Virus record (IMG/VR): IMGVR_UViG_3300044640_001517
Span: 1-64,000 of that record
Length of the DNA stretch: 64,000 nt
Origin: a virus
Direction: 5' to 3' (one strand)
Part shown: piece after piece, positions 663-18,180 of the stretch
Layout: the number at the start of each line of letters is the position of its first letter
Position numbering within the stretch: position 1 is the first letter of the stretch
Notes under the pieces: generated by a model
What the model was told of the DNA's origin: nothing
The model's input: only the letters and a program-made list of their open reading frames with translations
Databases searched by the model: none
Translations under genes and position numbers: made by a program

Positions 663-1337
663 ATGGTATTAAGAGACAGTGGCGGTAAAAAGCCAACCAC
701 TCCAACAATTGGAACTCCAACTGTCGGCAACACGCAGGTAAGTGTCGCGTTTACAGCTTCTACCTACATAGGAAAAGGAACAGTCACATACACAGCGACT
801 TCAAGTCCTGGTGGGTTTACCGCAACTGGAAGTTCGTCGCCTCTTGTAGTTACTGGTCTTACTAACGGAACTGCCTATACCTTTACCGTACGAGCCACCT
901 CATCAAGCGGCGTACAGTCGGATTCTTCAGCGGCTTCAAGCTCGGTTACGCCAGGCGTTGCGCCAAGCGCACCGACAATTGGAACAGCAACCGCTGGAAA
1001 CGCTCAAGCAACCGTAACCTTTACACAGGGTGCAACTGGAACTGCAGCGGCAGGCGCGGTTACATATAGGGCTACTTCAAGCCCTGGTGGTCTTGTTACT
1101 ACTGGTATCAACGTCACCTCACTAACGGTAACTGGTCTTACAAACGGAACCGCATACACATTTGTTGTAAGAGCGGAAAGCGCATTTGGTAATAGCCCTA
1201 ACTCTGCTTCTTCAAACTCTGTCACGCCGGTTGCGCCTCCATACTTTCCTCCATTCTTTCCTCCATTTTTCCCTCCATTCTTTCCTCCATTTTTCCCTCC
1301 ATTCTTTCCTCCGTTTTTTCCACCAGTATTTAAGTAG
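663..1337 (+). CDS. Double fibronectin type III domain protein with a C-terminal (PPxF)8-K tail; probable virion surface protein
   Basis: Two PTIGT..GN.Q..V.FT...Y.ATSSPGG...VTGLTNGTAYTF.VRA...S..S.SVTP units, then PPYF(PPFF)6PPVFK. ATG 663 follows TGg-TACGAT. Confidence 0.8.
   Translation: MVLRDSGGKKPTTPTIGTPTVGNTQVSVAFTASTYIGKGTVTYTATSSPGGFTATGSSSPLVVTGLTNGTAYTFTVRATSSSGVQSDSSAASSSVTPGVAPSAPTIGTATAGNAQATVTFTQGATGTAAAGAVTYRATSSPGGLVTTGINVTSLTVTGLTNGTAYTFVVRAESAFGNSPNSASSNSVTPVAPPYFPPFFPPFFPPFFPPFFPPFFPPFFPPVFK
1236..1334 (+). repeat. 12-nt tandem coding repeat, 8 units, encoding PPYF/PPFF/PPVF
   Basis: cctccattcttt / cctccatttttc units with synonymous variation. Confidence 0.95.
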
Positions 1338-1343
1338 ACGCCG

Positions 1344-2060
1344 ATGGACGATCTTCGTCTTTCAGAGCTGTATAGAGAATACGAAAAGAATGGTTTTGCG
1401 GTTCTTGAGAACGTCATCGATGAAGAACTGATCACCGCATTCGAGAAAGAATATCCTCGAGAAAAATATACAGATATACCTCCGTATGCCTCGTACATTG
1501 CAGATCGAGCCGCATATATAAATAGCGAGATCATACGAAACATCATCTGTCATGAGACACTTGTAAGATTTTTGGCGCTGTCTGGGCAGCAGTATATGCT
1601 GCAAATAATTGAGGCGAGACGCGGGTCATCGCAGATTGACTGGCATATTGACTACTTTGGCGCAGATGATAAGCCGTGGGACGAGTTTGTGGTTGTTCAG
1701 GTCTGTCTGCAAGATGCAACAGAAGAGTCAGGACCGCTTGAGATTATTGAAGGTTCACATCTTTGGAACATTGATTGGAACGTAATCACAAAAGAAAATT
1801 GCGCAGAAAACGCAACTTCTTGCTGGAAGTACTACGAAAAAGCTATAGTAGATCATGCGCAAGAACCTCGTAAGTTCTTATGTAAACGAGGTGACATCGT
1901 GCTTTGGAGTGGATACGCAATGCACCGTGGCAGCAGACCTACTAGTCTATCGATTGAACGACACACGATGATCGGTAGGTATAACTCGTCAAAAAACCCA
2001 GAAGCAGAGTATCCAGATAAGCTCAAAAAACACGGTGAGATTTTGTACGTAGTCCATTGA
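1344..2060 (+). CDS. PhyH-like (phytanoyl-CoA dioxygenase family) Fe(II)/2OG oxygenase
   Basis: YEKNGFAVLENV, WHID (HxD), GPLEIIEGSHLW, GDIVLW...HRG, distal R. Confidence 0.85.
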   Translation: MDDLRLSELYREYEKNGFAVLENVIDEELITAFEKEYPREKYTDIPPYASYIADRAAYINSEIIRNIICHETLVRFLALSGQQYMLQIIEARRGSSQIDWHIDYFGADDKPWDEFVVVQVCLQDATEESGPLEIIEGSHLWNIDWNVITKENCAENATSCWKYYEKAIVDHAQEPRKFLCKRGDIVLWSGYAMHRGSRPTSLSIERHTMIGRYNSSKNPEAEYPDKLKKHGEILYVVH

Positions 2061-2066
2061 TACAAT
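2058..2066 (+). promoter_or_regulatory. Extended -10 promoter (TGa-TACAAT) for a leaderless transcript
   Basis: TANNNT lies 6 nt before ATG 2073; no Shine-Dalgarno sequence. Confidence 0.55.
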
Positions 2067-2072
2067 CAATCT

Positions 2073-2690
2073 ATGGACTCACCCTGGAAGATCCCACCTG
2101 GATATTTTGGCACTGGTCCCCAAAATGTAAAGATATTGAGAAACTTTATTGACCGCGAAGACGTGGAAAAGATCTATGCGTTTTCAAAGACAATAAACGA
2201 GTGGCTTACCGACGGCATGGAGGACACGTACAACGAAGATGGGACGTGCACGTACAGCTCTTGGTATTGGAAAGATCGACAATGCTCAAGCGAGATCTTG
2301 CAGAGACTAAGTCCTGAGATTCACGCGCTGATTGATTCATATATAGACAAGATGGCGATCGTTGCCGGAGAGCTATTCAACTGCGAACTTGAGAAACGTC
2401 CACCGTGTATCATCAGGTGGTTCCCCGGGATAGAGCAGCAGCCGCACGCGGACAAACAACTGCTCGACGGATCTCCAAATCCTTTTCAGGCCTATGACAT
2501 AAACTCGTTGTTCTACTACAATGACGACTTTGAGGGTGGTGAATTATATTATCCAGAGCTAGACATCGTGGTCAAACCTGAACCTGGTCTCGCGGTCATC
2601 CACCCCGGTGATATACATTATCTACATGGCGTAAAGACAATTACACAGGGTGAACGATTTACGTCACCGGTGTTCTACACAGTCAAATGA
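2073..2690 (+). CDS. Prolyl-4-hydroxylase-like Fe(II)/2OG oxygenase
   Basis: PHAD, YYNDDFEGGEL, HGV...GER motifs. Confidence 0.9.
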   Translation: MDSPWKIPPGYFGTGPQNVKILRNFIDREDVEKIYAFSKTINEWLTDGMEDTYNEDGTCTYSSWYWKDRQCSSEILQRLSPEIHALIDSYIDKMAIVAGELFNCELEKRPPCIIRWFPGIEQQPHADKQLLDGSPNPFQAYDINSLFYYNDDFEGGELYYPELDIVVKPEPGLAVIHPGDIHYLHGVKTITQGERFTSPVFYTVK

Positions 2691-2697
2691 GGACAGA

Positions 2698-3381
2698 ATG
2701 ATTGCAGGAAAGAAGCCGCATAACGCTCTATCTCCACGCGTGCTTGTCTTTAATGACTTTCTGCCAGAAAGCGACTGGCAGACTGTAGACGCATACTGTA
2801 GATCCAAAGGCGACAGTTTTGAGTTTATCGGATACGGCTCGAACATGCGCTACAAAGAATACACACACTCGCAGCGTCATGACATCAAGTACCAGCGCTC
2901 GTATCTCTCTGACGACAAGAATGACACCGGAACCCGGCACGGCGATAACTACAAGATCTACATGGTTGATCTCACAAATACGTCACACTTTCTATACGAT
3001 GAACACACAGGTGAAACGCTATCGACGATGCTGCGCGTCACTCAACGGTTGATCTCTGACATTCATGGAAACCAGACAATATATGAAAGTGGACCGTGGT
3101 TGTCTCGAGCTCCTGCAGGTGGGCACATGAATCTCCACTGCGACGGGACGTTTATCGCCAATCCAGATTTAAGTACAGATTTTTCCGCCGTCTATTATGT
3201 CAATGATGACTACGAAGGCGGAGAACTGGTCATACCGGTAATCGGTGTAAAGATCAAACCAAAGGCAAACTCGCTTATTCTTTGGTCACATGTGTGGCAT
3301 GAAGACATGGCGCACGGTGTCTTACCAGTGACAAAAGGAGAGAGATACATGTCGCAAGGATTCTTTGCGTCTGTAGACTGA
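2698..3381 (+). CDS. Prolyl-4-hydroxylase-like Fe(II)/2OG oxygenase
   Basis: LHCD, YVNDDYEGGEL, HGV.PV..GERY. Start moved to ATG 2698, after the upstream stop. Confidence 0.9.
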   Translation: MIAGKKPHNALSPRVLVFNDFLPESDWQTVDAYCRSKGDSFEFIGYGSNMRYKEYTHSQRHDIKYQRSYLSDDKNDTGTRHGDNYKIYMVDLTNTSHFLYDEHTGETLSTMLRVTQRLISDIHGNQTIYESGPWLSRAPAGGHMNLHCDGTFIANPDLSTDFSAVYYVNDDYEGGELVIPVIGVKIKPKANSLILWSHVWHEDMAHGVLPVTKGERYMSQGFFASVD

Positions 3382-3384
3382 CAT

Positions 3385-4032
3385 ATGAACCCGATATATC
3401 TAAGTGACCCACGTCTAGGAGTTCTTGTCTACAAGAACGCACTGCCAAAAGAACTTGAGCTTGTCAATCGTCTAGAAAAGACAATCGGCAAAAGCACAAC
3501 TCCACCGTTTATGTGGATGGAGGCACTTGTCGGCTATGCACAAAAGATGCCTGAATACCGCGACTGTGTGGACTGCAAGATCGGCGATATCCATCTACAG
3601 CATCTTCCGCCACAGTTTGAAGAGCTTCGCAACATATACAACGATACGGTTGTCAATCTCCGTCGCTGTGTCGAAGACTATCAGCAGCGGTACAACATCG
3701 GGCTCAACTATATGGAGGCGATCAACTATGTTCGCTATGGTGAGAAGCAGCACTTCCAGGTGCACACGGATCACGGGTTTTCGTACACGTGCACAATGTC
3801 ATCGGTGATGTACCTTAACGACGAGTACGACGGCGGTGAACTATGGTTCCCGTATCTTGATCTCGAGTTCAAGCCAGAGTACGGAGACATCGTGCTATTC
3901 CCGTCAACGTACATATTTGCCCACGCTGCAAAACCGGTGACAAGCGGAGTCAAGTATTCCGCCGTAACGATGTTTGACTACAATGATCGAAACCATGATC
4001 TGCCGTCTAACTACGACTATTCAAGAGAGTAA
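3385..4032 (+). CDS. Prolyl-4-hydroxylase-like Fe(II)/2OG oxygenase
   Basis: VHTD, YLNDEYDGGEL.FP, GDIVLFPS..HAA.PV..G.KY. Confidence 0.9.
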   Translation: MNPIYLSDPRLGVLVYKNALPKELELVNRLEKTIGKSTTPPFMWMEALVGYAQKMPEYRDCVDCKIGDIHLQHLPPQFEELRNIYNDTVVNLRRCVEDYQQRYNIGLNYMEAINYVRYGEKQHFQVHTDHGFSYTCTMSSVMYLNDEYDGGELWFPYLDLEFKPEYGDIVLFPSTYIFAHAAKPVTSGVKYSAVTMFDYNDRNHDLPSNYDYSRE

Positions 4033-4033
4033 G

Positions 4034-4735
4034 ATGCCAAAGTTCTCGCTTCTTCGCACATACCAAACGCCACCGGAGATTAGACAGTCGCGTCTCAAAC
4101 GAGAGTGGATGGACAATACGTATAAGAAACATGCGTATCAGTGTCTACCTATGACATACGCCAACGTCTACGGCTGGGAGCTTGTGTTGCCGCATGACGT
4201 TGTTGCGATCTGGGAAGGCGGAAATACACTCCCAAAGATACTTGAAGGCGCTGACTACGGCGGACGTCAACTTGCATACGGCGGAATCATTGGAATGGTT
4301 TCATTCTCAACAGGCTGGGTATTTAAGACAGAACCTGGCTATGAGACAATGATTGGTGGATCGCCAAACTACTTTGTTGACGGAGCCGAGGCCTTATCTG
4401 CAATAATCCCAAGTAGCTGGTGGCCAGATGAGTTTCAGATGAACTGGAAGATCAACAAGATCAATGAACCAGTCACGTTTGAGGCTGGAATGCCGTTTAT
4501 GTTCTTTACAATGTTTGACAGCAATGTACTTGATCGTGTAGAGTTTGACGTTGCAAATCTTTGGGATAACCCAGAGCTTATGCACAGTCGTCAAAAGTAC
4601 GGTGACCAAAAGATGAAAAATAATCAAGAAAATCCTTGGACATGGACAAAAGGAATACGCACCGGACTAGACGCCGATGGGAATACAATTGGACCAGAGT
4701 TTACAGGTTTGCCAAAGCTGAAGGAGCCAAAATGA
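4034..4735 (+). CDS. DUF6065-like protein
   Basis: REWMD.T...HAY.CLP...AN..GW and F.MNWK.....VTF..G.PF patterns recalled for DUF6065; start at ATG 4034. Confidence 0.65.
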   Translation: MPKFSLLRTYQTPPEIRQSRLKREWMDNTYKKHAYQCLPMTYANVYGWELVLPHDVVAIWEGGNTLPKILEGADYGGRQLAYGGIIGMVSFSTGWVFKTEPGYETMIGGSPNYFVDGAEALSAIIPSSWWPDEFQMNWKINKINEPVTFEAGMPFMFFTMFDSNVLDRVEFDVANLWDNPELMHSRQKYGDQKMKNNQENPWTWTKGIRTGLDADGNTIGPEFTGLPKLKEPK

Positions 4736-4947
4736 AGTTAGGTGCATTTGACGAAGAGCGCGCTAAAAAAGAGGCAGTCTCGTACCTTGCAAAGTCACTT
4801 ACTGTACTTAGCTCAATACTTGACATTGACCTAGACTCATTCAATCCAGAAAATGCAAATCCGTATGGAATTGATAGTCCGTTTTACGCCTCATACGAAT
4901 GTTTGCGCGAAGAGTTTTATGCGTTTGGAAAGTTAGTAAATGAATAG
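4732..4947 (+). CDS. Small hypothetical protein
   Basis: ATGA overlap with the upstream stop; AAGGAG RBS. Confidence 0.65.
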   Translation: MKLGAFDEERAKKEAVSYLAKSLTVLSSILDIDLDSFNPENANPYGIDSPFYASYECLREEFYAFGKLVNE

Positions 4948-5143
4948 TCCAGAAGAAAAAGATGAAATTGACATGAGTGTCCGTCGAGGAGAGTCTGTTA
5001 CAGATGTCTCAGACTGGGACAACGAGGTCATTGAGTGGGACTCAAGTACAGGAATCTACTATGTCGCCGGTAAGCCGGTAAGTATGTGCCAAGGTGTTGC
5101 AATGTTTAAGACGGAAGAAAATGACAATGAAAAGAAAGTATGA
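4940..5143 (+). CDS. Small acidic hypothetical protein
   Basis: Overlaps both neighbours in the operon. Confidence 0.55.
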   Translation: MNSPEEKDEIDMSVRRGESVTDVSDWDNEVIEWDSSTGIYYVAGKPVSMCQGVAMFKTEENDNEKKV

Positions 5144-5501
5144 TCCAGCCGCGGACCTGGCGTACCGTTCATGCAACCTTGCTTCTTTGATGTACATACT
5201 TGGAATAGCCAGAGAAGACTTTGAAAAGACAACCATTGATGACGCAATCAATACAATTCGCGATAGGTACGTGTATAAGCATGACATCTCTACAAATATC
5301 GCGTCTCAAGAGTATATCAAGAAACAGAGTATTGTGCTTTCAAGAAACTTTAGACGCGCGTGGTTTGATGTCCAGGTTGCCGCATACGAGGTTGAACACA
5401 TGAAGTGCAGTTGCTACTACGTACAAACTGAACGCGTCTTAGGCGGACAGGAAAAAGTAGTATGCGACGTGTGCACTGAGGCTGGTAGATCGCATGAGTG
5501 A
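5121..5501 (+). CDS. Hypothetical protein with C-terminal CxC...CxxC
   Basis: Operon-coupled ORF; KCSCYY and CDVC. Confidence 0.55.
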   Translation: MTMKRKYDPAADLAYRSCNLASLMYILGIAREDFEKTTIDDAINTIRDRYVYKHDISTNIASQEYIKKQSIVLSRNFRRAWFDVQVAAYEVEHMKCSCYYVQTERVLGGQEKVVCDVCTEAGRSHE

Positions 5502-6237
5502 AGAAAAACGATACGAACCTCAGCGGTCATTTGACTACACAAAGTGGTTTATGGACTGGCGTCAGTTTGCTGATGAGTCAACTCGCAAAGATGGACCCGA
5601 GTCTGTCAAGATCGCAAACTATCTATTCAACACGGTAGGCGTTGATCGTAGAAATATAGCGACAGGTGGCGCGAGCGACTATGAGTTTGTTATCCACTAT
5701 CCGCGACCGCATCTTGCTGACTCGTACGGTCAGTCACAGTGGATGGCAATCTTGCTTATCCAGATGATTATGGACATTGCGCCAAAGAAGCACGTACTTG
5801 CGTTATCAGGCGGACTTGATCGATATCGACTCAAGCCTTTTCAAGATATCTTTGGCTCGTCAATTTACTTCTTAAACAATAAGAAGCTTGCAACCTACGA
5901 GATGTTCCAGCGCGAACATACGCCAATGCATTACGAAGTTGTAACAATGCAGCAACTCGAAGGCGATCCGCCAGGTAAGACGTGGGGATTTGACATGATC
6001 GTTGGCTGGTCACAGGACATGGAAAATCCATTTATCCCAGTTGATTTTTATGTAGATCGTCTTACTCCAGGTGGAGTAATGATCATCCAAAACTCGTCTG
6101 ACAGTGTGTTCTTGTACCATAATGATACGCAGGCAACACCAGTATGGGAGTATCATGAGGCTCTCAAGTCGCGAGATGACTGTCGTGTATATCACATACC
6201 TATCTTTTACGGACTAACGATTGTGGTGAAGGACTAG
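5494..6237 (+). CDS. Divergent class I SAM-methyltransferase-like protein
   Basis: PKKHVLALSGG (motif I-like), FDMIV, RLTPGGVMII, GLTIVVK. Confidence 0.5.
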   Translation: MSEEKRYEPQRSFDYTKWFMDWRQFADESTRKDGPESVKIANYLFNTVGVDRRNIATGGASDYEFVIHYPRPHLADSYGQSQWMAILLIQMIMDIAPKKHVLALSGGLDRYRLKPFQDIFGSSIYFLNNKKLATYEMFQREHTPMHYEVVTMQQLEGDPPGKTWGFDMIVGWSQDMENPFIPVDFYVDRLTPGGVMIIQNSSDSVFLYHNDTQATPVWEYHEALKSRDDCRVYHIPIFYGLTIVVKD

Positions 6238-6240
6238 ACA

Positions 6241-6912
6241 ATGATTGTAATAGATAACTGTCTTCCAGCAAAGCTATACAAAGAAGTGCTCAATGATGAC
6301 AAGTTCTTCCCCGAGACAATGGGTGGTGGAGACAGGATCGCGACCGAACTCAACTCGTATCATTACGAAAAGTCAAGTTGTTTTGCACCGTATATGTTCT
6401 GGGACGGTTGGTGGAGAAGTCCAGCAAACACACTACGCAAACGCGTAGTTCAGTCAATATGGAAGAATAACTTGCCATGCAAGAAAGAAGACATTCTTGG
6501 TTTTGAGTATTGGACGCGTACATATATGCCAGGCCAGTTCTTAGACGTACACGTCGATGAAGACACATTTTTGTATGAAGACAGCAAGATCTTTAGCGGC
6601 CCGCATATTGGATCGATATACTACGGACTCGATAATCTTGAGGGTGGTTTTGTCGAGATCCACAACGCAAAGTTGATCGACGGAACGCCTCTTGCAATCG
6701 AACGTGAAAACGTAGATCCAATTCTTTCTCCAATTGAAGAGCGCGAAAGAATAGCATATCGAGGAAATCGTCTAATCATCTTTGACGCTGGACACGTTAT
6801 GCATGGAACTACTCCGGCAAAAAGTGGAATACGTCAAGTTATGGTCATAAACGTATGGCACAAAGATCACCCGCCTGTGGCACTAGAAAAGAACACGTTC
6901 TACTATGAATAA
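6241..6912 (+). CDS. Fe(II)/2OG oxygenase
   Basis: GFEYW, VHVDED, GG, NRLIIFD...HG, R.V..INVW. Confidence 0.75.
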   Translation: MIVIDNCLPAKLYKEVLNDDKFFPETMGGGDRIATELNSYHYEKSSCFAPYMFWDGWWRSPANTLRKRVVQSIWKNNLPCKKEDILGFEYWTRTYMPGQFLDVHVDEDTFLYEDSKIFSGPHIGSIYYGLDNLEGGFVEIHNAKLIDGTPLAIERENVDPILSPIEERERIAYRGNRLIIFDAGHVMHGTTPAKSGIRQVMVINVWHKDHPPVALEKNTFYYE

Positions 6913-8445: not shown

Positions 8446-8678
8446 TCTTCGCGTCGTGTGTGTATTTTGTTCTCAATCATAAGATGTTTGCTCCACGTGT
8501 TGATAGCATGAACAAGCCCAAGCTCTCTTGCAACATCAAATTCTTCTTGGATTAGCTTAATTTTTCCATCGGCAATATCGCACCAAGCGGTAGCAACAGC
8601 CTCAGCGCCAGTTTTTCCAATTGTTCGATACTTATCGTCAAGTTTGTTGAGTAGTGACAAATCGTTCCATTCACGCAT
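8442..8678 (-). CDS. Small hypothetical protein, leaderless
   Basis: TACGAT lies 6 nt before the ATG on the minus strand; the ORF fills the gap between genes. Confidence 0.6.
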   Translation of the reverse strand: MREWNDLSLLNKLDDKYRTIGKTGAEAVATAWCDIADGKIKLIQEEFDVARELGLVHAINTWSKHLMIENKIHTRRED

Positions 8679-10493: not shown

Positions 10494-10497
10494 ACAG

Positions 10498-11406: not shown

Positions 11407-12266
11407 TATACAACGACGTGGACGCAGAACATCTAGGTGGCGGTATTATCGTTTTCCGCCGTGCAGTATCTTTTGACTCTCAATGGGCTGTTGAATTCGC
11501 TGAACAACAGATAAGTACAGAACGCGCTGAGATGTACACATCTACGATTGATCCTGAGACCGGCAATCCTGCGTACCTAAATAAAAGTGGATATGTGTTT
11601 GACGCGCGGGGGGTTGAAGAGATGCCTCGTCGCGGTTCGCAGATTCATAGAATTGATAGACAGGATGTCTTAGAATTTCTTGATTTTATTGAAGAATCAA
11701 AAGACAAGTATCTTCTAAAGTACTTTGTTAGGTTTCCTTTGGCGTACAAGAATGTTTGGTGGAAGGTAAAAGGACATCTGGTAAGTTACTCTGTGGAACA
11801 CGGTGGTAAGTTTCTCGGACCTCACTCGGACACAAGCGCCGACTACGCATATGGAATGCCTGAACCTGTAGATCAACTTGCAACACGAAACACAATCTCT
11901 TGCGTCGTGTACTTAAATGAAGACTTCATCGGTGGTCATCACTACTTCAACTATCTTGACATTGACTATGTTCCGCAGACAGGTGACATCTTGATGTTTC
12001 CATCTAACTATATTGCTGCGCATGAGGTGACCCCAGTTGTGTCGGGAAGTAGATATAGCTATCTCGGCTGGTATGCGCACGGGACTGCAAATCCAGTTGT
12101 CAATGAGCATGTTGTCGATCCAGCTTTGCAACCTGACCTGGCGAGAAAAGCCACCAACGTGTATATGCCGTCATTACGACAAGACCTAAAAGACTACCTC
12201 GATAAGATTGGTATCGACAAGTCTTCACATATTTACCAATTAGTAAGAAGCATGCACTCAACATGA
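11403..12266 (+). CDS. Fe(II)/2OG oxygenase (paralogue family A, copy 2)
   Basis: GPHSD, YLNEDFIGG, GDILMFPSNYIAAHEV, RYSYL. Confidence 0.9.
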   Translation: MIYNDVDAEHLGGGIIVFRRAVSFDSQWAVEFAEQQISTERAEMYTSTIDPETGNPAYLNKSGYVFDARGVEEMPRRGSQIHRIDRQDVLEFLDFIEESKDKYLLKYFVRFPLAYKNVWWKVKGHLVSYSVEHGGKFLGPHSDTSADYAYGMPEPVDQLATRNTISCVVYLNEDFIGGHHYFNYLDIDYVPQTGDILMFPSNYIAAHEVTPVVSGSRYSYLGWYAHGTANPVVNEHVVDPALQPDLARKATNVYMPSLRQDLKDYLDKIGIDKSSHIYQLVRSMHST

Positions 12267-13006
12267 TAGTTACACACATGGGCAACGGAATAGTTAAGTT
12301 TGAAGACGCGCTTGCCATTGACAAAGAATATATGTCTGGGTTCTTTTCACGGCTCAATGGAGTTGATGTAAACTACGGCCAGATAATCGACGAAGAGCAC
12401 GTCCGCACTGAAGGCCAATACAAACTAAATCGTGAAGAGGTGAGTAAAGCACCTGTTCGATTCACTGATCTCTACAAATTGCAAGCCGCAGAAGACGTTG
12501 ACTTTATCTCAAAGATGCGAGACGCGATCCACGACTGCGTTCGTGCATATGCGCGCATCTTTCCAGTAGTAGCCGAGTGTATCCGCTGGGGCACGCATGG
12601 CTATGTAATTAGATACGAAAATGGCCAGTCAATTGGACCGCACTCAGACTGCAACATTGCGTACGAAGATGATGGAGTAACACCAATCAACACGTTTCCA
12701 ATGCAAAACATATTGACATGTGGTTTGTTTCTAAATGATGACTTTAGTGGCGGAGATCTTCACTTTCGTCCGTGGGCCATTACGGTAAAGCCAAAACCTG
12801 GAACAATTGTTATCTACCCATCTTCATATCTTGGCTGTCATGAAGTGTCTCCGGTAACTGACGGACAGAGACATGCATATCTTATGTGGTACGGACATGG
12901 TCCTATAGGTGGAATGAGTCATCGACCAGCAGACGATCTAAAAGATGTTGTCTCAAACCCTCAGCAGAAGTTTATACCTGTGGGACGGATTGAGTTGTAT
13001 GAGTAG
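12263..13006 (+). CDS. Fe(II)/2OG oxygenase (paralogue family A, copy 3)
   Basis: GPHSD, FLNDDFSGGDL, YPSSYLGCHEV, R.AYL. Confidence 0.9.
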   Translation: MIVTHMGNGIVKFEDALAIDKEYMSGFFSRLNGVDVNYGQIIDEEHVRTEGQYKLNREEVSKAPVRFTDLYKLQAAEDVDFISKMRDAIHDCVRAYARIFPVVAECIRWGTHGYVIRYENGQSIGPHSDCNIAYEDDGVTPINTFPMQNILTCGLFLNDDFSGGDLHFRPWAITVKPKPGTIVIYPSSYLGCHEVSPVTDGQRHAYLMWYGHGPIGGMSHRPADDLKDVVSNPQQKFIPVGRIELYE

Positions 13007-14018
13007 TTCCATACTGCGTCACGCATCTATTCTGAAATACTGGATTTGACCCAAGTTCTAAACCTTCTGTTGGTTTAGACCAGATCGAGTACTGAGACTT
13101 GCAATAACGTTCGTAGTCATCGTAGATATTGTCAAACCACACCGGGGCGCACCAGTCGCGACTTTCTGAACTTTCAACTATACGAATGTTTGCTTCGTAG
13201 TCTTCTCCGCCTTGACCAAAGAATGTTAGGTATGCGTATCTAGTTCCACCATGCATCTGTGTAACTCCATGACTGCAGATGTAGTTTGTTGGGAAAAAGA
13301 TAATGTCGCCTTTCTTAGGCTTGTACTCAACATTTATATATGGAAACTTTAGACTTCCTCCGCAAAAGTTTTCACCGTTGAGCTCTTCCGGAGTGTCAAC
13401 ACAATCATTAAAATACGCAAGCGCGCCGGCAGTCTGCCGTGAGGCAACCATGCCTTTTGGCATGTATCGAACTCCGCCTGTAACTTTGTAGTTGGTGTCA
13501 TTGTCTTGGTGCCAGCCAAGCATACCGCTTCCTTCATATCGAAGAACATGACCACGCGTTCTCCACCACAGACTTCCAACGACGAGTGGAAACATATCAA
13601 CATAGCGAATTAAGCACTTATATATTGCGTCCTCAAGCGCAACAAAGTAGTCAACCATCTTTTGCGGTGTATGCGGTTGATCTACGGGCGCAAGCAATCT
13701 TGTCGGTGCATTTGGCACATCTTCAAGTCGATATCTAAATCCATCTTCGTTGATGCCGTATTCAACGCCGTCTTCGCCTATGATGTACTTCCAGCGCTCA
13801 CTTGCGACCTCAGCGACCCGCGCGTCAATGTGGTCAAGCGCAAACTTTTCTACACTAAACGCATTCTTGAAAACAATAAGTCCGTTGCCCAGATCTTCAT
13901 ATTCAAGATTTGATATCTCAATAATTGCGCTATCATCAATTACAGGGGTAGAAGGAAGTACCGGCACCTTCATAAACTCAAGGTGCTCTTCTGGTGTTCT
14001 TCTCATTTCGCTATTCAT
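12972..14018 (-). CDS. Fe(II)/2OG oxygenase (paralogue family A, copy 4)
   Basis: GWHQD, YFND, GG.L.FP, GDIIFFPTNYICSHGV, RYAYL. Start placed at ATG 14018, overlapping the upstream stop (alternative 14081). Confidence 0.9.
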   Translation of the reverse strand: MNSEMRRTPEEHLEFMKVPVLPSTPVIDDSAIIEISNLEYEDLGNGLIVFKNAFSVEKFALDHIDARVAEVASERWKYIIGEDGVEYGINEDGFRYRLEDVPNAPTRLLAPVDQPHTPQKMVDYFVALEDAIYKCLIRYVDMFPLVVGSLWWRTRGHVLRYEGSGMLGWHQDNDTNYKVTGGVRYMPKGMVASRQTAGALAYFNDCVDTPEELNGENFCGGSLKFPYINVEYKPKKGDIIFFPTNYICSHGVTQMHGGTRYAYLTFFGQGGEDYEANIRIVESSESRDWCAPVWFDNIYDDYERYCKSQYSIWSKPTEGLELGSNPVFQNRCVTQYGTTHTTQSVPQV

Positions 14019-15063
14019 CGAATTTAAGATACTTTGGGTCGATTCTTCCGCGGAGTTTGTTGATCTCGATTCCGTTTTCATAGTAGTACGGAATCTTTAG
14101 TCCTTCATCTCCTTCAAGTGCTCTATTCTGGAACACGGGATTTGGCTTTCTGTTTAGCTCATCTTCAGTCTTGCCAAACTCTTCTGTTATGCAGTACTTT
14201 GTGTAGTCATCATACAAGTTATCAATCCAATGCGCAGGTGACCAGCCTTTGCATTCGTGCGGTTCTACGATGCTAACGTTGTACTCTTCGTGACTACTTC
14301 CCTGCGAAAAGAATTCTAGGTAGCAATACCTGTTGCCCGCGATGACCCTGCGTACTCCGTGAGTTGCCACGTAGTTTGTAGGAAAGATGACGACGTCGCC
14401 AGCTTTAGGCTTTACCTCAATGTTTAGATATGGAAAGAATAATTCTCCACCTAGGTAGTTTTCGCCGTTAAGATCCTCTGGACTATCAGCGCAGTCATTT
14501 ATATAGACAAGCGCAGCGACAACCTGTCGCATCTGTGACTGCCCGTATGGCACATACCTACGTCCGCCAGTTGCGCGGTAGTTTGCGTCATTGTCATTAT
14601 GAATACCTAAAAAGTCTCCAGGCGCGTACCGAATAACATGTCCGCGTTCACGCCACCAGATTGTGCCGAGCACGAGAGGAAAATCGTGGATATACTTGAT
14701 TAGACACTTATAGATCTGATCTTCATAGTGATTAAAGACGTCAATCGCCCAATTTTCAGTGTTGGCATTTACGGGTTCAAGAACACGAACTGGCACTTCT
14801 TCTAGATGCTTCATTGAAAACTTGTTGCCATCTTCGTTTATTGCATACTTATTTCCGTCAGCGTCAACATCGTATTTCCAGCGCTGCTCAGTTGCCCGTT
14901 GTGCATTCTCATCGATCCACGGTATGATCTTTTCTTTTTGCGTATCTACGGCATTAGAATACTGAACCACCGCTCCACCAAGATAGGTAGGTTGAATGGC
15001 GAGTATCTCTTCAATTTCTTTTCTACCGATCTTCGGAGTAGATCCATCGAAGATGTTACGCAT
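14011..15063 (-). CDS. Fe(II)/2OG oxygenase (paralogue family A, copy 5)
   Basis: GIHND, YIND, GGELFFP, GDVVIFPTNYVATHGV, RYCYL. Confidence 0.9.
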   Translation of the reverse strand: MRNIFDGSTPKIGRKEIEEILAIQPTYLGGAVVQYSNAVDTQKEKIIPWIDENAQRATEQRWKYDVDADGNKYAINEDGNKFSMKHLEEVPVRVLEPVNANTENWAIDVFNHYEDQIYKCLIKYIHDFPLVLGTIWWRERGHVIRYAPGDFLGIHNDNDANYRATGGRRYVPYGQSQMRQVVAALVYINDCADSPEDLNGENYLGGELFFPYLNIEVKPKAGDVVIFPTNYVATHGVRRVIAGNRYCYLEFFSQGSSHEEYNVSIVEPHECKGWSPAHWIDNLYDDYTKYCITEEFGKTEDELNRKPNPVFQNRALEGDEGLKIPYYYENGIEINKLRGRIDPKYLKFDE

Positions 15064-15070
15064 ATGTCAG

Positions 15071-15096
15071 ATTTTATACTGGTTGCAGGATAAAAT
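15071..15096. promoter_or_regulatory. Back-to-back leaderless promoters
   Basis: Minus: TAAAAT (15076-15071)-N7-ATG 15063. Plus: TAAAAT (15091-15096)-N6-ATG 15103. Confidence 0.55.
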
Positions 15097-15102
15097 GTGT
15101 TA

Positions 15103-15921
15103 ATGGCCGAAAATGAAAATCCAAACACCACGCAGATAGTTATTCCTGCTGAGACCTTAAGCAGCTGGAATTTGTTTATTGGAGTTCCGTGCTACGACAG
15201 TTCAGTGACAGAACCATTTATGATGTCACTGATCCGCACAATGCTGCACTTTGAGAAGATCGGCGTGCGGCTAACAATAAGTACATTGGCTGATTCACTG
15301 ATCTCTAGATCTAGAAACATGCTTCTTGCCAAGTTTATGGCAGACCCCGTATACACGCACTTTATGTTTATTGACTCAGATATTGGTTTTGCTCCAGAGT
15401 CAGTACTAAAACTTCTATGGCACGACAAAGAAGTTATCGCCGCAGCGTATCCAGTAAAAGAGATCAACTGGAAAAAGATTGAAGAACTAGTGTCAGACGG
15501 AATGCCGATCCAAGAAGCGGCAAAGAACTCGGCGCGCTTTGCGTTTAGCGCGATTCAACCAGGCCAAACCTCTGTTGAAGTCTCTAACGGAGCACTTGCA
15601 GCATATGATCTTGGCACTGGATTTATGATGATCAAGCGTGAGACTGTTGAAAAGATGATCGAGGCTCATCCAGAGCTCAAGTACGACGATGACACAGGCG
15701 GACTCAACGAGAAAGAAAAAGAGTTTGCGTATAACTTCTTCAATCCACATATTGACTCACGGTCACGGTACTTATCAGAGGACTACGCGTTTTGTCGATA
15801 TTGGCAGCAACTTGGTGGAAAGACGTGGCTTGATCCCGACATCGATCTGACGCATGTCGGCAGATTTAGATACACCGGCAGCGCGCGAGCATACATCGAC
15901 ACTCTTATCGTAAAAGAATAA
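15103..15921 (+). CDS. GT-A fold glycosyltransferase (phage GT2-like)
   Basis: SLISRSRN, HFMFIDSDIGF (DxD), GTGFMMIKR, LSEDYAFC..W...GG....DP...LTHVG. Confidence 0.85.
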   Translation: MAENENPNTTQIVIPAETLSSWNLFIGVPCYDSSVTEPFMMSLIRTMLHFEKIGVRLTISTLADSLISRSRNMLLAKFMADPVYTHFMFIDSDIGFAPESVLKLLWHDKEVIAAAYPVKEINWKKIEELVSDGMPIQEAAKNSARFAFSAIQPGQTSVEVSNGALAAYDLGTGFMMIKRETVEKMIEAHPELKYDDDTGGLNEKEKEFAYNFFNPHIDSRSRYLSEDYAFCRYWQQLGGKTWLDPDIDLTHVGRFRYTGSARAYIDTLIVKE

Positions 15922-15922
15922 G

Positions 15923-17677
15923 ATGAAGATCGCGGTATATACCATCGCGCTTAACGAAGCAAAGTTTGTCGAACCTTGGTATAACTCTGCAAAAGACGCT
16001 GACTATCTTCTTATCGCTGACACTGGGTCTACGGATGGAACAGTTGAGAAGGCAAAAGAACTAGGAATCAATGTTGTATCTATAAACATCAAACCTTGGC
16101 GCTTTGATGATGCGCGTAACGCTTCGCTCGCTGTGCTACCTTCTGATATTGACGTGTGCATCTCACTTGACATGGACGAAGTACTTGTTGAGGGCTGGCG
16201 AGATCATCTTGAAAAAATGCCAGAGGGGACAACAAGACCTCGATACAAGTATGTGTGGAACTGGAACGCTGATGGATCGGAAGGCTTGGTGTACGGAGCT
16301 GACAAGATCCACGCTCGTCATGGATACCGCTGGGTTCATCCAGTCCACGAGGTTATCTCTCCAACAGACGAAGAAGTACAGAACTGGATCGGAATGGAGA
16401 TTCACCACCACGCTGACTCAACAAAGTCGCGTGGACAGTACTTACCTCTTCTCAAGCGCGCGGTTGATGAGCGTCCAAATGACGACCGCAACGCGTACTA
16501 TTACGCACGAGAACTGTATTTTTATGAAAAGCCAGAAGCGGCAGACGAGTTCAAACGACATCTAGCACTGCCAACAGCGCAGTGGCGGCCAGAACGAGCC
16601 GCGTCAATGCGGTATCTTGCTAAGTTAGAAAAGCATGAAGCAGAGACATGGCTACTTCGCGCGTGCGCTGAGGCACCAGAATATCGCGAGCCGTGGCACG
16701 ATCTTGCATTTTATTACTATGAAAAGAAGCAGTGGGAAAACTGTCTATCAGCGGCCAAGCGTGCGCTTGCGATAAAAGAAAAGCCACTTGCGTATCTCAA
16801 TGATGCCGCCGCGTGGGGTGCATCTCCACACGACCTCGCCAGTATTTCTGCGTGGAGCATTGGGCAAAGACATGAGGCCATCATGCATGTGCGTAACGCC
16901 ATATGCGCAGATCCAAACAATGAACGTATGCAAGAAAATCTTGCAATGATGCTCCGGAATACATATCCAGAAAAGATCACAGCAATAATTCCAACAAAGT
17001 CAAACATCTCCGGCGCGTTAGGCGTCATATCGCGTCTACAGAAAGATCCCCAGGTAGAAACAATTGTCGTTATTGCAGACGGAGATAAGGCCCACGAGAC
17101 GTACGAATCACTGCTAAAAGACAAAGAAAAGGTAGAACTTAGAAAGGTTGAACTTGGCGTAGGTATTCATGTGATGTGGAACATCGGAATAGATATCGCC
17201 AAAGAAAACGGTACCTCAGCCGCATTTGTAAACGATGATGTTACGCTTGGCGATAACTGTATAGGTACGCTTGCGTCACTTGTTGAGTACGACAAGCAGA
17301 TCGGTCTTGTCTGTCCGACATATGACTATCGCAAGTTTGTTGACATATACCAAGACGTTGAAACCACAGCAAACGGACGATCAGACGGCACAGGTGGTCT
17401 TGGAGGATTCTGCATGGTTATTCCAAAAAACCTCACCAAAGAGTGGCGCTTTGACGAGTCAATGAAGTGGTGGTACGGAGATGATGATGTTCTTGCCTGG
17501 TGTAGACTTACAAAAAAACTTCGTGCGGTAATGACAAGTATCACGCGGTGTAGCGGAAATATATCGGCAACAATCAACAACGATCCTCCGCCTGGATTTG
17601 CAGATCTTGTAAGAGAAGATAGACGAATATTCATTGAAAAGTGGGAAAAACAAGGAGTGCCATGCATAGAGCGGTAG
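15923..17677 (+). CDS. GT2 glycosyltransferase - TPR - second GT2 domain fusion
   Basis: IADTGSTDGT, FDDARN, LDMDE, VHE; TPR-like helices (YYARELY, REPWHDLAFYYY); second domain IIPT...FVNDD...GFC...FDE...WYGDDD. Confidence 0.85.
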   Translation: MKIAVYTIALNEAKFVEPWYNSAKDADYLLIADTGSTDGTVEKAKELGINVVSINIKPWRFDDARNASLAVLPSDIDVCISLDMDEVLVEGWRDHLEKMPEGTTRPRYKYVWNWNADGSEGLVYGADKIHARHGYRWVHPVHEVISPTDEEVQNWIGMEIHHHADSTKSRGQYLPLLKRAVDERPNDDRNAYYYARELYFYEKPEAADEFKRHLALPTAQWRPERAASMRYLAKLEKHEAETWLLRACAEAPEYREPWHDLAFYYYEKKQWENCLSAAKRALAIKEKPLAYLNDAAAWGASPHDLASISAWSIGQRHEAIMHVRNAICADPNNERMQENLAMMLRNTYPEKITAIIPTKSNISGALGVISRLQKDPQVETIVVIADGDKAHETYESLLKDKEKVELRKVELGVGIHVMWNIGIDIAKENGTSAAFVNDDVTLGDNCIGTLASLVEYDKQIGLVCPTYDYRKFVDIYQDVETTANGRSDGTGGLGGFCMVIPKNLTKEWRFDESMKWWYGDDDVLAWCRLTKKLRAVMTSITRCSGNISATINNDPPPGFADLVREDRRIFIEKWEKQGVPCIER

Positions 17678-18180
17678 TTGATTGGGTTGCGTATTCACTT
17701 GAGAAGCGCAGTACTCTTGAAAATGCAAAGATGGCAGGCAACCGTGTTCTTGAGATTGGAAGTCTTGACATCAACGGAAGCATCAAGTCAATGTTTGACG
17801 GTTTGACTTCTGAAGGTGGTTCGTATTTTGGCATTGATCTTCAAGACGGTCCAGGTGTTGATCTTGTGATTGATGCCGTGGCGTATAAAAGCAACGAGCC
17901 ATACGACATAATTGTCTGCGCCGAGGTGTTTGAGCATACCCCAGCGTGGAAGGCGATCATCTTAAATGCGCATTCTCTTCTTGTAGATGGTGGAATGTTT
18001 ATCGCAACGATGGCTGGTGAAGGACGACCACCGCACTCCGCGATTGACACAAACCCGATACGCAGTTGGGAGTATTACAGCAACATTACAAATCTTGAAC
18101 TCGCAACGATGCTAGATGTATTTACAACGGCTGAGGTAAACGTGTTTTCAGATGACACCCGTTGTTGGGCAGTTAAGTAG
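17662..18180 (+). CDS. SAM-dependent methyltransferase (glycan-associated type)
   Basis: VLEIGSLDING, GIDL..GPGVD, EVFEH, L..GG. AAGGAG RBS precedes ATG 17662. Confidence 0.85.
   Translation: MHRAVVDWVAYSLEKRSTLENAKMAGNRVLEIGSLDINGSIKSMFDGLTSEGGSYFGIDLQDGPGVDLVIDAVAYKSNEPYDIIVCAEVFEHTPAWKAIILNAHSLLVDGGMFIATMAGEGRPPHSAIDTNPIRSWEYYSNITNLELATMLDVFTTAEVNVFSDDTRCWAVK

Follow-up and report, generated by a model that had tools for sequence, protein, structure and literature searches.

A phage gene for a Pro-Pro-x-Phe repeat protein that travels with 2-oxoglutarate oxygenases: a candidate substrate for prolyl hydroxylation

In a 64,000-nucleotide stretch of viral DNA (the window), a gene for a protein with a C-terminal PPxF repeat is followed by a battery of Fe(II)/2-oxoglutarate (2OG) oxygenase genes. 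The repeat and these enzymes occur together in many unrelated phages, which makes the repeat a candidate substrate that can be tested, and on sequence grounds we consider it, with modest confidence, the likely target of prolyl hydroxylation. We found no published account of the module in the literature.

The repeat protein is encoded by an ORF at 639-1337 (+), open from TTG 639, whose 232-aa product ends in ...TPVAPPYFPPFFPPFFPPFFPPFFPPFFPPFFPPVFK-stop. Homologues begin at the position of ATG 663, so we place the start there, as the first-pass annotation had done. It had also described the architecture correctly: the product of 663-1337 reads Fn3-Fn3-PPYF(PPFF)6PPVFK, that is, Fn3-Fn3-(PPxF)8-K, and the enzymes start (ATG 1344, first oxygenase gene) 6 nt after its stop. 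Pfam recognizes fn3 in two stretches (6.2e-12), and PHROGs places the protein in the tail families phrog_31 and phrog_6977. The tract itself (1236-1334, +) consists of eight 12-nt units and a final Lys codon; TRF reports a 12-nt array of 7.5 copies with a 24-nt super-unit at 1236-1325, and the six PPFF units have three different DNA spellings. The repeat is not due to chance: a C-terminal (PP[F/Y]F)n...PPxFK-stop, with 3 to 30 units, recurs across many related contigs. Among ORFs of at least 100 aa, only two in the 90-kb genome end in FK. The second is a Cys-knotted tail fibre (36326-37837, -) with the translated end (PPVV)5 PPVT PPVT APPTFK-stop, and downstream of it lies a 460-aa oxygenase (34271-35653, -; PF13640 1.1e-13, residues 367-450), the 12th P4H-like gene of the window.

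Upstream of the repeat gene is a tail-fibre or minor-tail gene, fib (3-632, +), which the edge of the contig truncates at the 5' end; its product ends in ...TWVAVGDLSA. Its PHROGs matches are minor tail protein (5.8e-15), tail fiber protein (2.4e-6) and virion structural protein (2.7e-17). The visible part, translated from 3-632, contains no Pro-rich tract. The gene accompanies the module in relatives, with homologues in 115 of 159 related loci.

Linkage between repeat and oxygenases, set beforehand as the refutation test, proved very strong in each of three IMG/VR samples with independent anchors: the Fn3 protein, the DUF6065 protein of the module and a (PPFF)3 DNA pattern. In the Fn3-anchored sample, 66 of 80 loci had at least 3 kb of downstream sequence and formed 54 clusters at 95% identity. 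An oxygenase homologue was present within 4 kb downstream in 25/25 clusters with the repeat, versus 3/29 without it (Fisher p = 2e-12, for a sample that is not phylogenetically independent). Of the 48 DUF6065-anchored loci whose upstream flank was 5 kb or longer, 45 showed a Pro/aromatic tract ORF under a strict window; the three misses (L112-L114) bear a 4-unit PPYF...PPRFK tail, so that a PPxF repeat ORF is present in 48/48. In the pattern-anchored sample, an enzyme homologue was found within 4 kb of 61 of the 72 repeat ORFs with at least 3 kb downstream, and of 16/17 in the FK-stop class; among the long-extension repeat ORFs, 10/40 had none within this distance. For ten of the 11 pattern-anchored exceptions the whole record was examined: six have PF13640 oxygenases at another place, and the remaining four, without PF13640, are fragments rated 5-31% complete. 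Among these ten, no near-complete record has the repeat alone.

The enzymes accompany 118 of the 131 distinct repeat ORFs whose flank was long enough, and they are kept although the repeat stands in several unrelated proteins (Fn3 plus K-stop 28/28, short N-terminus plus K-stop 21/21, S74-ended 6/6, Fn3 plus Cys-rich 6/6). The short-form proteins contain little beyond the repeat itself. In related short-form repeat genes, a CGG codon marks a conserved junction that resembles a +1 frameshift; those loci do not use this codon elsewhere. In cellular genomes, long FK-stop arrays were found only in six MAG contigs, which bear the same phage module; a fib homologue adjoins the long repeat ORF in all six.

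Several comparisons speak for mobility of the module. The window's major head protein had no match in any of 10 long module-bearing records (four at least 94% complete; a positive control was run), and the window's polymerase had a match in one of five records, at 30% identity. The module is present in WhiB-carrying phages without detectable relatives of this head protein. Among these very records, the Fn3 protein is 56-69% identical in L002, L103, L110 and L115, and the DUF6065 protein 77-78% identical in the last three. In some relatives, a Peptidase_S74 chaperone begins at a Ser directly after ...PPxFK (1e-11, 9e-11). If S74 self-cleavage takes place before that Ser, processing would leave the same mature end. 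The tail PHROGs and the position of this fibre chaperone fit the proposal that the repeat protein belongs to a virion appendage.

Eleven Fe/2OG oxygenase genes were identified by Pfam and PHROGs within 1344-15063, in agreement with the about 11, mostly prolyl-4-hydroxylase (P4H)-like enzymes claimed at first pass. All retain an intact iron motif, HxD...H plus a basic residue, in the HxH variant for 6905-7825. Nine match PF13640, a broad family, seven above the Pfam cutoff and two below. The first gene (1344-2060, +) is of the PhyH family (6.5e-19, 69.5 bits; HID...H), with only 31-37% identity to its counterparts in other loci. It is followed by ox2 (2073-2690, +; PF13640 22.2 bits, below cutoff; HAD...H...R), a short P4H-like core member with 255 best-hit intervals at 58% median identity; in relatives, the gene that most often directly follows the repeat gene is a homologue of ox2. 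Next come ox3 (2650-3381, +; PF13640 2.3e-12; HCD...H...R) and the core member ox4 (3385-4032, +; PF13640 4.4e-13), both P4H-like. Further downstream are ox5 (6241-6912, +; P4H-like; PF13640 24.1 bits, below cutoff; HVD...H...R; 92 best-hit intervals, median identity 59%) and ox6 (6905-7825, +), a 2OG-FeII_Oxy_5-type enzyme with a C-terminal extension (PF13759 25.8 bits versus a cutoff of 27; PHROG_81 2OG-Fe(II) oxygenase 6.5e-19). Five long-form P4H-like enzymes complete the set: ox7 (10480-11406, +; PF13640 4.9e-9), ox8 (11403-12266, +; 6.6e-12) and ox9 (12263-13006, +; 3e-11), all with HSD...H...R, and ox10 (12972-14081; 1.7e-8) and ox11 (14011-15063; 1.9e-9), which are 46% identical and are the two of the eleven on the minus strand, an orientation that the first-pass annotation did not mention.

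Ox4 directly precedes the DUF6065 gene in most relatives, and its H127, D129 and H180 are invariant in 36 homologues. A search for solved structures covered ox4 and ox8. Of these two, only ox4 reached a solved P4H at E<1e-5 (B. anthracis prolyl 4-hydroxylase, 3itq, 2.8e-6; then prolyl 3-hydroxylase 1, 8k0e, 0.0025), with ox8 weak at 0.011. Ox4 is the most P4H-like enzyme, and its closest solved structure is a collagen-type prolyl 4-hydroxylase. Within the window, the eleven paralogues are 25-46% identical to each other; their best-hit counterparts in other phages have median identities of 31-59%, with maxima up to 78%. This pattern suggests separate conserved roles.

The core non-oxygenase partner is the DUF6065 protein (4034-4735, +), annotated as such at first pass and clearly recognized by Pfam (1.8e-45). 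The longer ORF aligns with homologues only from residue 21 onward, so ATG 4034 was taken as the start. The family is large, with 1305 cluster representatives at E<=0.001. R23, C37, G47 and N112 are invariant, a His/Asp triad is absent, and searches including a profile search found no solved relative. In other proteins, DUF6065 is fused to P4H-like, JmjC (JmjC/Cupin_8), Stf0 sulfotransferase, SapC or glycosyltransferase domains, and this enzyme company may therefore also act without a Pro-Phe repeat, possibly on small molecules or peptides, in line with a proposal for Syn9 (PMC2938197).

ORF calls within 4636-5501 (+) gave three small ORFs, 4636-4947, 4940-5143 and 5094-5501; the first and third have no Pfam or PHROG match, with homologues in 17 and 46 loci, respectively. 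These ORFs were absent from the first-pass annotation, as was a gene for a GPx-fold protein without the canonical peroxidatic Cys (7825-8445, +; Pfam GSHPx 8.7e-25). NVASKCGFTPQ of yeast Hyr1 (3cmi) aligns with its NIVSKAGYEPK, and among 74 aligned sequences (the window's own and 73 homologues) the peroxidatic column holds Cys in 38 and Ala in 27. Of the two to three methyltransferases reported earlier, two were recovered by Pfam: MT1 (9840-10493, +; class I SAM methyltransferase; Methyltransf_31/25 and others, 1e-9 to 4e-10) and MT2 (17641-18180, +; Methyltransf_23 1.9e-7). For the third, a conserved 247-aa protein (5494-6237, +) with homologues in 70 loci and no Pfam, PHROG or NCBIfam match, a methyltransferase fold is possible from weak evidence: its Atlas feature neighbours are O-methyltransferases (0.91-0.93), as is the top PDB profile match (3cbg, E 0.0079). 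The putative AurF-like enzyme (8728-9837, +) falls below the Pfam cutoff (AurF 2.5e-5, 24 bits versus 29.6); two ExxH motifs and weak matches to R2-like ligand-binding oxidase (NCBIfam 3.4e-9, below cutoff) and aldehyde-deformylating oxygenase (PDB 4.4e-5) are consistent with a ferritin-like diiron oxidase or oxygenase (AurF/R2lox-like). It has 14 best-hit intervals (median identity 85%), and the order AurF-MT1 recurs in L084 and L111-L113. As for the two GT-A genes named earlier, GTb (15923-17677, +) combines Glycos_transf_2 (Pfam 1.2e-9, residues 5-92), TPR models (residues 172-293) and a rhamnosyltransferase-like domain (residues 376-468; both NCBIfam), while GTa (15097-15921, +) is weakly GT-A-like (Pfam Anp1 0.0011; PHROG glycosyltransferase 2.4e-5; PHROG_1574, of unknown function, 1.1e-37).

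Glycosylation and methylation had been proposed as parts of the module, but conservation does not support such modifications of the repeat. Among 275 related viral loci, GTb (at full coverage) and MT2, both accessory genes, have a counterpart only in L001, which is the window's IMG/VR copy; the diiron-MT1 pair has 13-14 best-hit intervals and GTa has 37. Two analogies were not supported either. The cluster is not RiPP-like: Pfam names neither a leader-recognition domain nor a leader peptidase in it, and the repeat forms the end of proteins with Fn3 or tail-type N-termini. Against the extensin analogy, Ser-Pro4 motifs are absent.

From this gene content and linkage we infer the repeat as substrate, prolyl hydroxylation as the reaction and a benefit to the phage. 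The product of 663-1337 would be a small virion protein of the tail-fibre region with an exposed Pro-Pro-(Phe/Tyr)-Phe polymer ending in Lys. The conserved gene battery directly behind it, in which ox2, ox4 and DUF6065 are the most widely distributed, would act on the polymer in the infected cell, the P4H-like oxygenases hydroxylating its prolines and DUF6065 serving as their obligate partner. The eleven old paralogues may differ from one another in the position, stereochemistry or residue type that they serve. Once hydroxylated, the tract, otherwise very hydrophobic, would become soluble and stiff, an end piece of polyproline-II type for adsorption. The extra enzymes here (diiron oxidase with MT1, the possible O-methyltransferase, the glycosyltransferases) may decorate the tract or serve other targets. 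The second fibre, with its ...PPTFK end and downstream P4H-like oxygenase, also speaks for this reading. Linkage is, however, not proof of a substrate relation, and eleven is a large number of distinct oxygenases for a repeat of four residues, which counts against it. For the one viral P4H with known in vitro peptide activity, that of PBCV-1, hydroxyproline could not be detected in virion proteins (PMC7019647).

The oxygenase battery and DUF6065 might instead make or modify a small molecule or free peptide, or remodel a host component, and lie beside fibre genes only through a mobile, hypervariable island, with the Pro-Phe tail an unmodified structural or adhesive element; taken jointly, we regard this as rather unlikely. 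Secondary-metabolite synthesis was proposed by Iyer et al. (2010) for the ten tandem dioxygenases of Syn9, and the same paper ties the DUF6065 fusion partners SapC, Stf0, JmjC/Cupin_8 and glycosyltransferase to metabolite clusters (PMC2938197). The diiron oxidase, methyltransferases and glycosyltransferases are typical small-molecule tailoring enzymes, and the number of distinct oxygenases would suit a multi-step pathway. However, Pfam matches in the cluster include neither a peptide synthetase nor an ATP-grasp protein, halogenase or transporter, all 48 DUF6065-anchored loci with enough flank have the repeat, and no near-complete record was found to have it without the enzymes. Moreover, were the site just an insertion hot spot, the pairing would not be expected to persist across different repeat proteins and phages without detectable head-protein relatives.

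Less probable still, the enzymes could modify virion proteins other than, or more than, the PPxF tail (fib, the fibre at 36326-37837, or several), with PPxF as a docking or recruiting element or a rod. Another virion protein could be the target because fib also travels with the module, including next to all MAG-borne repeat ORFs; the second Pro-rich fibre has its own oxygenase, and eleven paralogues could mean many substrates. Nevertheless, the visible part of fib is free of Pro-rich tracts, it is the repeat itself that co-varies with the enzymes among Fn3 homologues, and the short forms offer little else to modify. Very improbably, the oxygenases serve auxiliary metabolism or repair (2-oxoglutarate/succinate adjustment or AlkB-like nucleic-acid repair). 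Phage 2OG-Fe(II) oxygenases are usually annotated in this way in the cyanophage literature (PMC10611076, PMC2984593), PHROGs classes them as auxiliary metabolic genes, and distant ox4 relatives occur in 344 phage records, mostly from cyanophages. But such drain or repair needs no eleven old, separately conserved paralogues and does not account for so nearly obligate a pairing with a fibre gene and a Pro-Phe repeat gene, and the closest solved structures belong to protein prolyl hydroxylases rather than AlkB.

If the PPxF repeat of this uncultured, lake-type phage is indeed hydroxylated, it would provide a substrate for phage oxygenases that have long lacked an assigned role.

The virus contig from which the window was taken is a single contig of 90,334 bp, estimated by CheckV to be 68% complete, and the window represents its first 64 kb. 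The phage is of siphovirus type, with genes for the major head and major tail proteins, tape measure, Dit and minor tail proteins, and it also has a WhiB gene. The contig begins inside a gene for a tail fibre or minor tail protein (3-632, identified by PHROG matches). The next ORF spans 639-1337, and the start sites of its homologues correspond to ATG 663. The protein encoded by 663-1337 contains two Fn3 domains according to Pfam, matches PHROG tail families, and ends in ...TPVA-PPYF-(PPFF)6-PPVF-K-stop. In the DNA, the tract consists of 12-nt repeats organized into a 24-nt super-unit, and its six PPFF units occur in three different spellings. In a different part of the genome, the ORF at 24532-25086 (minus strand) has an (Ala-Pro)n tract near its C-terminus, a further Pro-rich stretch.

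A block of enzyme genes starts 6 nt past the stop codon of the repeat gene and is tightly packed, with many overlaps of 4-8 nt. Its first half consists of PhyH (1344-2060), three short P4H-like oxygenases (ox2, 2073-2690; ox3, 2650-3381; ox4, 3385-4032), DUF6065 (4034-4735), small ORFs together with a 247-aa protein (5494-6237), two oxygenases (ox5, 6241-6912; ox6, 6905-7825) and a GPx-fold protein (7825-8445). The second half contains a ferritin-like diiron protein (8728-9837), a methyltransferase (MT1, 9840-10493), three long-form P4H-like oxygenases (ox7-ox9, 10480-13006) and two more on the minus strand (ox10 and ox11, 12972-15063). A GT-A-like gene (GTa, 15097-15921), a GT2-TPR-GT gene (GTb, 15923-17677) and a second methyltransferase (MT2, 17641-18180) form the end of the block. 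Profile matches of the Pfam, PHROG and NCBIfam type bore out the gene inventory of the first-pass annotation, except that it had overlooked the GPx-like gene and that the AurF and GTa matches are weak. Support for the 247-aa protein as an O-methyltransferase was also weak, and this function is not claimed. We infer, from the tight spacing only, that the block is co-transcribed; in a promoter and terminator scan of 1-19000, promoter-like sites were no commoner than in shuffled sequence, and no convincing intergenic terminator was found. Directly past the cluster, on the minus strand (18181-20941), lie genes for a WhiB protein, whose long extension at the C-terminus ends in a Lys run, for a pyrimidine-dimer DNA glycosylase and for a C5 cytosine DNA methylase.

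We analyzed the association of the repeat with oxygenases in three IMG/VR samples, which were anchored on the Fn3 protein, on DUF6065 and on a DNA pattern, respectively. The first comprised the best 80 of 438 relatives of the Fn3 protein, of which 66 had at least 3 kb of downstream sequence and fell into 54 clusters at 95% DNA identity. An oxygenase homologue was present within 4 kb downstream in all 25 clusters with at least three PPxF units, versus 3 of the 29 clusters without the repeat (Fisher p = 2e-12), most of which end in Gly-rich fibre domains. The three discordant loci were a mixed PFF/PPFF tract overlooked by the regular expression (L057), a protein with a Cys-rich end (L047) and one true exception (L062).

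The second sample consisted of 80 of 109 DUF6065 relatives, chosen without consideration of the repeat. Among the 48 loci with at least 5 kb of upstream sequence, 45 had a same-strand ORF with a Pro/aromatic tract, and the three misses (L112-L114) were found to have a 4-unit PPYF...PPRFK tail. Where less than 4 kb of upstream DNA was available, the tract was seen in only 8 of 26 loci, as fits a repeat gene sitting 2-6 kb upstream of DUF6065. For the third sample, the bare DNA pattern of (PPFF)3 was used, which yielded at least 120 stretches. Homologues of window enzymes were detected within 4 kb of 61 of the 72 listed repeat ORFs with at least 3 kb downstream (16/17 with the FK stop, 15/15 with short extensions, 30/40 with long extensions). 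Ten of the 11 exceptions were traced to their full records; six of these encode PF13640 oxygenases elsewhere, four are fragments that are 5-31% complete, and no near-complete phage with the tract but without the enzymes was found among them. The eleventh (L162) was left out, as its frame looks spurious. Linkage between repeat and oxygenases had been set beforehand as the refutation test for the earlier proposal, and the outcome was positive in all three samples. One record (L221, whose contig is shared with L090) has two short PPxF...FK genes about 9 kb apart, at 2730-3131 and 11872-12279; it contains six PF13640 genes, and oxygenases lie within 4 kb only at the second repeat gene.

The enzymes are kept whatever the protein context of the repeat. 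They accompany the arrangement Fn3-Fn3-repeat-K in 28/28 cases, a short N-terminus followed by almost only repeat-K in 21/21, repeat-Peptidase_S74 in 6/6, Fn3-repeat-Cys-rich knot in 6/6, and repeat plus weak Hint/intein-like domains in 3/3. Over all contexts, they were present for 118 of the 131 distinct repeat ORFs with enough flanking sequence.

The carriers are also diverse. For the major head protein of the window phage, no match was found in 10 long records that contain the module (four are 94-100% complete and 92-174 kb in size), in a search whose positive control worked; the DNA polymerase of the phage matched one of five records, at 30% identity. The Fn3 protein is 56-69% identical in L002, L103, L110 and L115, which are records without a head-protein match, and DUF6065 is 77-78% identical in L103, L110 and L115. 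For the T4-type head protein PF07068, which was not matched even in the controls, the lack of a match in the large carriers carries no weight. The occurrence in unrelated contexts and in several phage lineages argues that the linkage is more than inherited gene order, and the fibre gene, repeat gene and enzymes appear to move as a unit among phages. All five module records tested have 1-4 WhiB genes, and the same model matched only Corynebacterium among 14 control genomes; the carriers probably share actinobacterial hosts.

In 185,579 cellular genomes, we found only six loci with long FK-stop arrays, of 13-18 units, on MAG contigs with the same fibre gene; four of the six also have the enzymes, and the other two contigs end less than 800 nt downstream. 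Further candidates for cellular repeat homologues were rejected, as 16 of the 22 genome matches were low-complexity frames of 3-7 units with no enzymes nearby. Among deposited phages, there was no DNA match for 1-20000 and no tblastn match for the Fn3-PPFF protein, using a search method that otherwise yields matches.

Domains behind the repeat give information about the end of the fibre. In two related loci (L131, 5862-6521; L137, 331-1080), a Peptidase_S74 domain begins at a Ser right behind ...PPxFK (9e-11 and 1e-11, above cutoff). This position identifies the repeat as the end of a fibre whose C-terminus matures by processing. S74 domains are typical of trimeric phage fibres and spikes, where they have a role in trimer formation and cleave themselves off after folding. 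If S74 cleaves before that Ser, the mature end would be the same ...FK as in genes that stop there. The window gene differs from S74 fibres and spikes of the endosialidase type in that it has no S74 domain and stops straight after FK. Weak intein/Hint-like domains follow the repeat in three other loci (L227, 8063-9304; L249, 5879-6847; L268, 7693-8331), with E-values of 9e-5 to 6e-4, below cutoff. The window's genome has just two ORFs of at least 100 aa that end in FK, both with Pro-repeat tails. The second is a Cys-knotted tail fibre on the minus strand (36326-37837); it contains (PVTA)n linkers and three Cys modules, and its C-terminus reads (PPVV)5...PPTFK. Behind it on that strand come an ORF of 141 aa, a Cys-rich one of 79 aa and a 460-aa protein that contains a P4H-like domain, the whole region (34271-37837) forming a second and smaller pairing. 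The S74 placement and the FK-ended tails fit an exposed fibre terminus.

Seven of the nine PF13640-type genes in 663-18180 score above the 27-bit cutoff, with ox2 (22.2) and ox5 (24.1) below it. PhyH (PF05721) is above its cutoff and ox6 (PF13759) just below its own, with PHROG support. All 11 oxygenases have the HxD/E...H iron triad (HxH in ox6) and a basic residue for the 2OG carboxylate, and in ox4 the residues H127, D129 and H180 do not vary across 36 homologues. We compared two of the oxygenases with solved structures. The best relatives of ox4 were the collagen-type P4H of B. anthracis (3itq, 5hv0; 2.8e-6 over the catalytic half) and P3H1 (0.0025), and ox8 matched P3H1 only, weakly (0.011). 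The B. anthracis enzyme, which acts on collagen-like Gly-X-Y, resembles ox4 in size class and HxD...H...K motif; unlike the window oxygenases it is encoded by a single gene, and its identity to ox4 is low.

The oxygenase paralogues of the window are 25-46% identical to one another. With their best-hit counterparts in other phages they share up to 78% identity, the medians being 31-59%. The medians are 54-59% for ox2, ox4, ox5, ox8, ox10 and ox11; at least these are old and separately conserved, which argues for distinct roles. Judged by best-hit intervals, the most widespread genes are ox2 (255), ox4 (235), DUF6065 (160), the GPx-like gene (120), ox5 (92) and ox7 (77). The diiron gene (14 intervals, median identity 85%) and MT1 (13) form an occasional pair, and GTa had 37 intervals versus 255 for ox2. 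In the related loci, no full-coverage counterpart was found for GTb, and none at all for MT2. The genes behind the glycosylation and methylation steps of the first-pass annotation are not conserved along with the module.

The GPx-like protein has a strong fold-level match (8.7e-25). At the Cys position of the NVASxCG motif it has an Ala, which is aligned with the peroxidatic Cys of yeast Hyr1 (3cmi) and followed by a 13-residue insert, so that the protein is not a canonical peroxidase. Among 74 aligned sequences (the window's own and 73 homologues), 38 have the Cys form and 27 the Ala form, and many related arrays have two GPx-like copies.

DUF6065 (PF19541) was identified in the window with 155.7 bits, versus a cutoff of 26.6. 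The family is large (1305 cluster representatives at E<=0.001), with invariant Arg, Cys, Gly and Asn and without a metal triad; sequence and profile searches found no solved relative. Among 10 long members scanned, seven (P0027, P0048, P0084, P0141, P0065, P0049 and P0086) are fused to another domain, namely a P4H-like domain, Cupin_8/JmjC (two), Stf0 sulfotransferase (two, one with TPR), SapC and a glycosyltransferase. DUF6065 is thus a habitual partner of protein- or peptide-modifying oxygenases. We found no mention of DUF6065 in the literature searched, and no tblastn match in 50,697 deposited phage records. The absence from deposited phages speaks against sequence-level identity with the 'dUTPase-fold protein with a conserved cysteine' that PMC2938197 mentions for Synechococcus phage Syn9.

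Together, the above observations are most economically explained if at least the core P4H-like enzymes act on the PPxF polymer as their substrate, a reading from sequence to which we give somewhat more credence than doubt. Prolyl hydroxylation would then confer solubility and stiffness on a very hydrophobic tract at the tip of the fibre. Several points count against this substrate role: the fibre gene accompanies the module as well, eleven oxygenases are a large number for a repeat unit of four residues, and DUF6065 and its partners may work where the repeat is absent. Two further points come from known viral systems.

The chlorovirus PBCV-1 is the only virus known with a characterised P4H enzyme, which is active on Pro-rich peptides in vitro, and like the window it encodes a small P4H-type Fe/2OG oxygenase. 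The role of this enzyme is not known, and hydroxyproline was not detected in virion proteins, which counts against a PPxF substrate (Eriksson et al., 1999, as summarized in the section on this enzyme in the review PMC7019647). PBCV-1 is a eukaryotic virus with one enzyme and, as far as that section describes it, no adjacent dedicated repeat gene, unlike the window with its 11 oxygenases, DUF6065 and genetically linked PPxF polymer.

The other point concerns Syn9, for which Iyer, Abhiman, de Souza and Aravind (2010; PMC2938197) describe about ten tandem dioxygenases from several families, one of them TPR-fused, with no known substrate. The array includes a JmjC/MINA member and tryptophan halogenases and is assigned by these authors to secondary metabolism, which again counts against the substrate role of the repeat. 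Like Syn9, the window has tandem dioxygenases of distinct families (PhyH, short and long forms of PF13640, and PF13759); unlike Syn9, it has no Cupin_8, JmjC or halogenase Pfam match in the 27 ORFs scanned. The passages on the Syn9 array mention no Pro-Phe repeat protein.

The same paper (PMC2938197) also describes bacterial operons that pair beta-hydroxylase/PhyH dioxygenases and sulfotransferases with tail-collar or collagen-like proteins as predicted substrates. The likeness to the window lies in dioxygenases beside a repetitive or fibre-like protein as the proposed substrate, and DUF6065-Stf0 fusions exist in other proteins. The bacterial operons differ in being cellular, in having Gly-rich or tail-collar substrates and sulfation as a second step, and in being a prediction only; the window has no sulfotransferase. 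Elsewhere, the use of viral P4H is called cryptic in a passage of a Baltic virome paper (PMC9301287), and such oxygenases are assigned to DNA repair or 2OG metabolism in the corresponding passages of cyanophage papers (PMC2984593, PMC10611076). The PPxF repeat and its link to oxygenases were not found in print in the literature on phage P4H/2OG oxygenases, tail fibres and hydroxyproline.

Related loci with short-form PPxF genes have a layout that is absent from the window gene, in that the gene is split over two frames (L087, 3100-3260; L089, 7370-7520; L122, 6790-6940; L238, 4080-4230; also L091, L125, L145, L154 and L298). The leader frame begins just past the stop of the fibre gene as M...KK.NRK..KPT[VI]AA, then reaches CGG, and stops 0-11 codons (mostly 2 or 6) past it. 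The +1 frame runs on as G[TA]ADSTANATITAAGF... into the repeat, and dropping the C of CGG recreates the single-frame homologues (L137, L138, L142). The split layout was found in 48 of 53 short-form ORFs, with 22 distinct junction 13-mers, in all of which 'CGG A' is invariant; CGG was present at every frame junction examined. In the module genes of 29 short-form loci, which were hand-listed from the short-type set without dereplication or individual confirmation of each junction, not one of 56,703 codons, 1,818 of them for Arg, was CGG. These loci were L087, L089-L094, L096, L098, L122-L126, L128-L130, L132, L133, L135, L145, L147, L148, L151, L153, L154, L157, L158 and L238. In the window's own genes, CGG accounts for 27 of 355 Arg codons. 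The short-form junction is a candidate for programmed +1 frameshifting at a hungry codon and resembles the yeast Ty3 site, and the codon counts suggest that CGG is hungry or unread in the hosts of the short-form phages.

A more far-reaching version, which we consider improbable when taken whole, is that the PPxF tail is a phage-made 'wet adhesive', equivalent to the foot proteins of mussels. A different hydroxyl (3-/4-hydroxyproline, dihydroxyproline, beta- or ring-hydroxylated Phe/Tyr) would be added by each of the old oxygenase paralogues, and the diiron oxidase and O-methyltransferase-like proteins would then adjust the phenols or catechols so formed. The polyproline rod at the tip of the fibre, by then heavily oxidised, would stick to actinobacterial envelopes, and in the short-form relatives the +1 frameshift at the otherwise unused CGG would set the copy number. 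Mussel foot proteins and plant extensins are built from short tandem repeats rich in Pro and aromatic residues and need enzymatic hydroxylation for function; they are eukaryotic and secreted. The phage motif is different, PP[F/Y]F without the Ser-(Pro)n (Ser-Pro4) of extensins, and, where extensin systems have conserved Hyp-O-glycosyltransferases that work after the hydroxylase, the glycosyltransferases here are not conserved with the phage module, so that the analogy to extensins and hydroxyproline-rich glycoproteins in the first-pass annotation does not hold. Its comparison with a RiPP cluster fares no better. Such a cluster has a short precursor made of leader and core, an element that recognises the leader, and a peptidase that cuts the leader off to free a small product. 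In the window, by contrast, the repeat forms the C-terminal end of a tail-type protein with two Fn3 domains, Pfam detects no recognition domain or peptidase in 1-18180, and the sole processing domains in relatives are the fibre-type S74 and the weak Hint-like ends.

P4H-like 2OG oxygenases abound in phage genomes, above all in those of cyanophages, and their role has been open since they were first catalogued. For the PPxF polymer as substrate, the module provides a concrete candidate that is linked to the enzymes and easy to synthesise, together with a minimal enzyme set (ox2, ox4 and DUF6065), so that co-expression and mass spectrometry could address the question directly. If true, this would represent a post-translational hydroxylation system for phage receptor-binding appendages and a new class of Pro-aromatic structural polymer, and would give a first functional handle on DUF6065.
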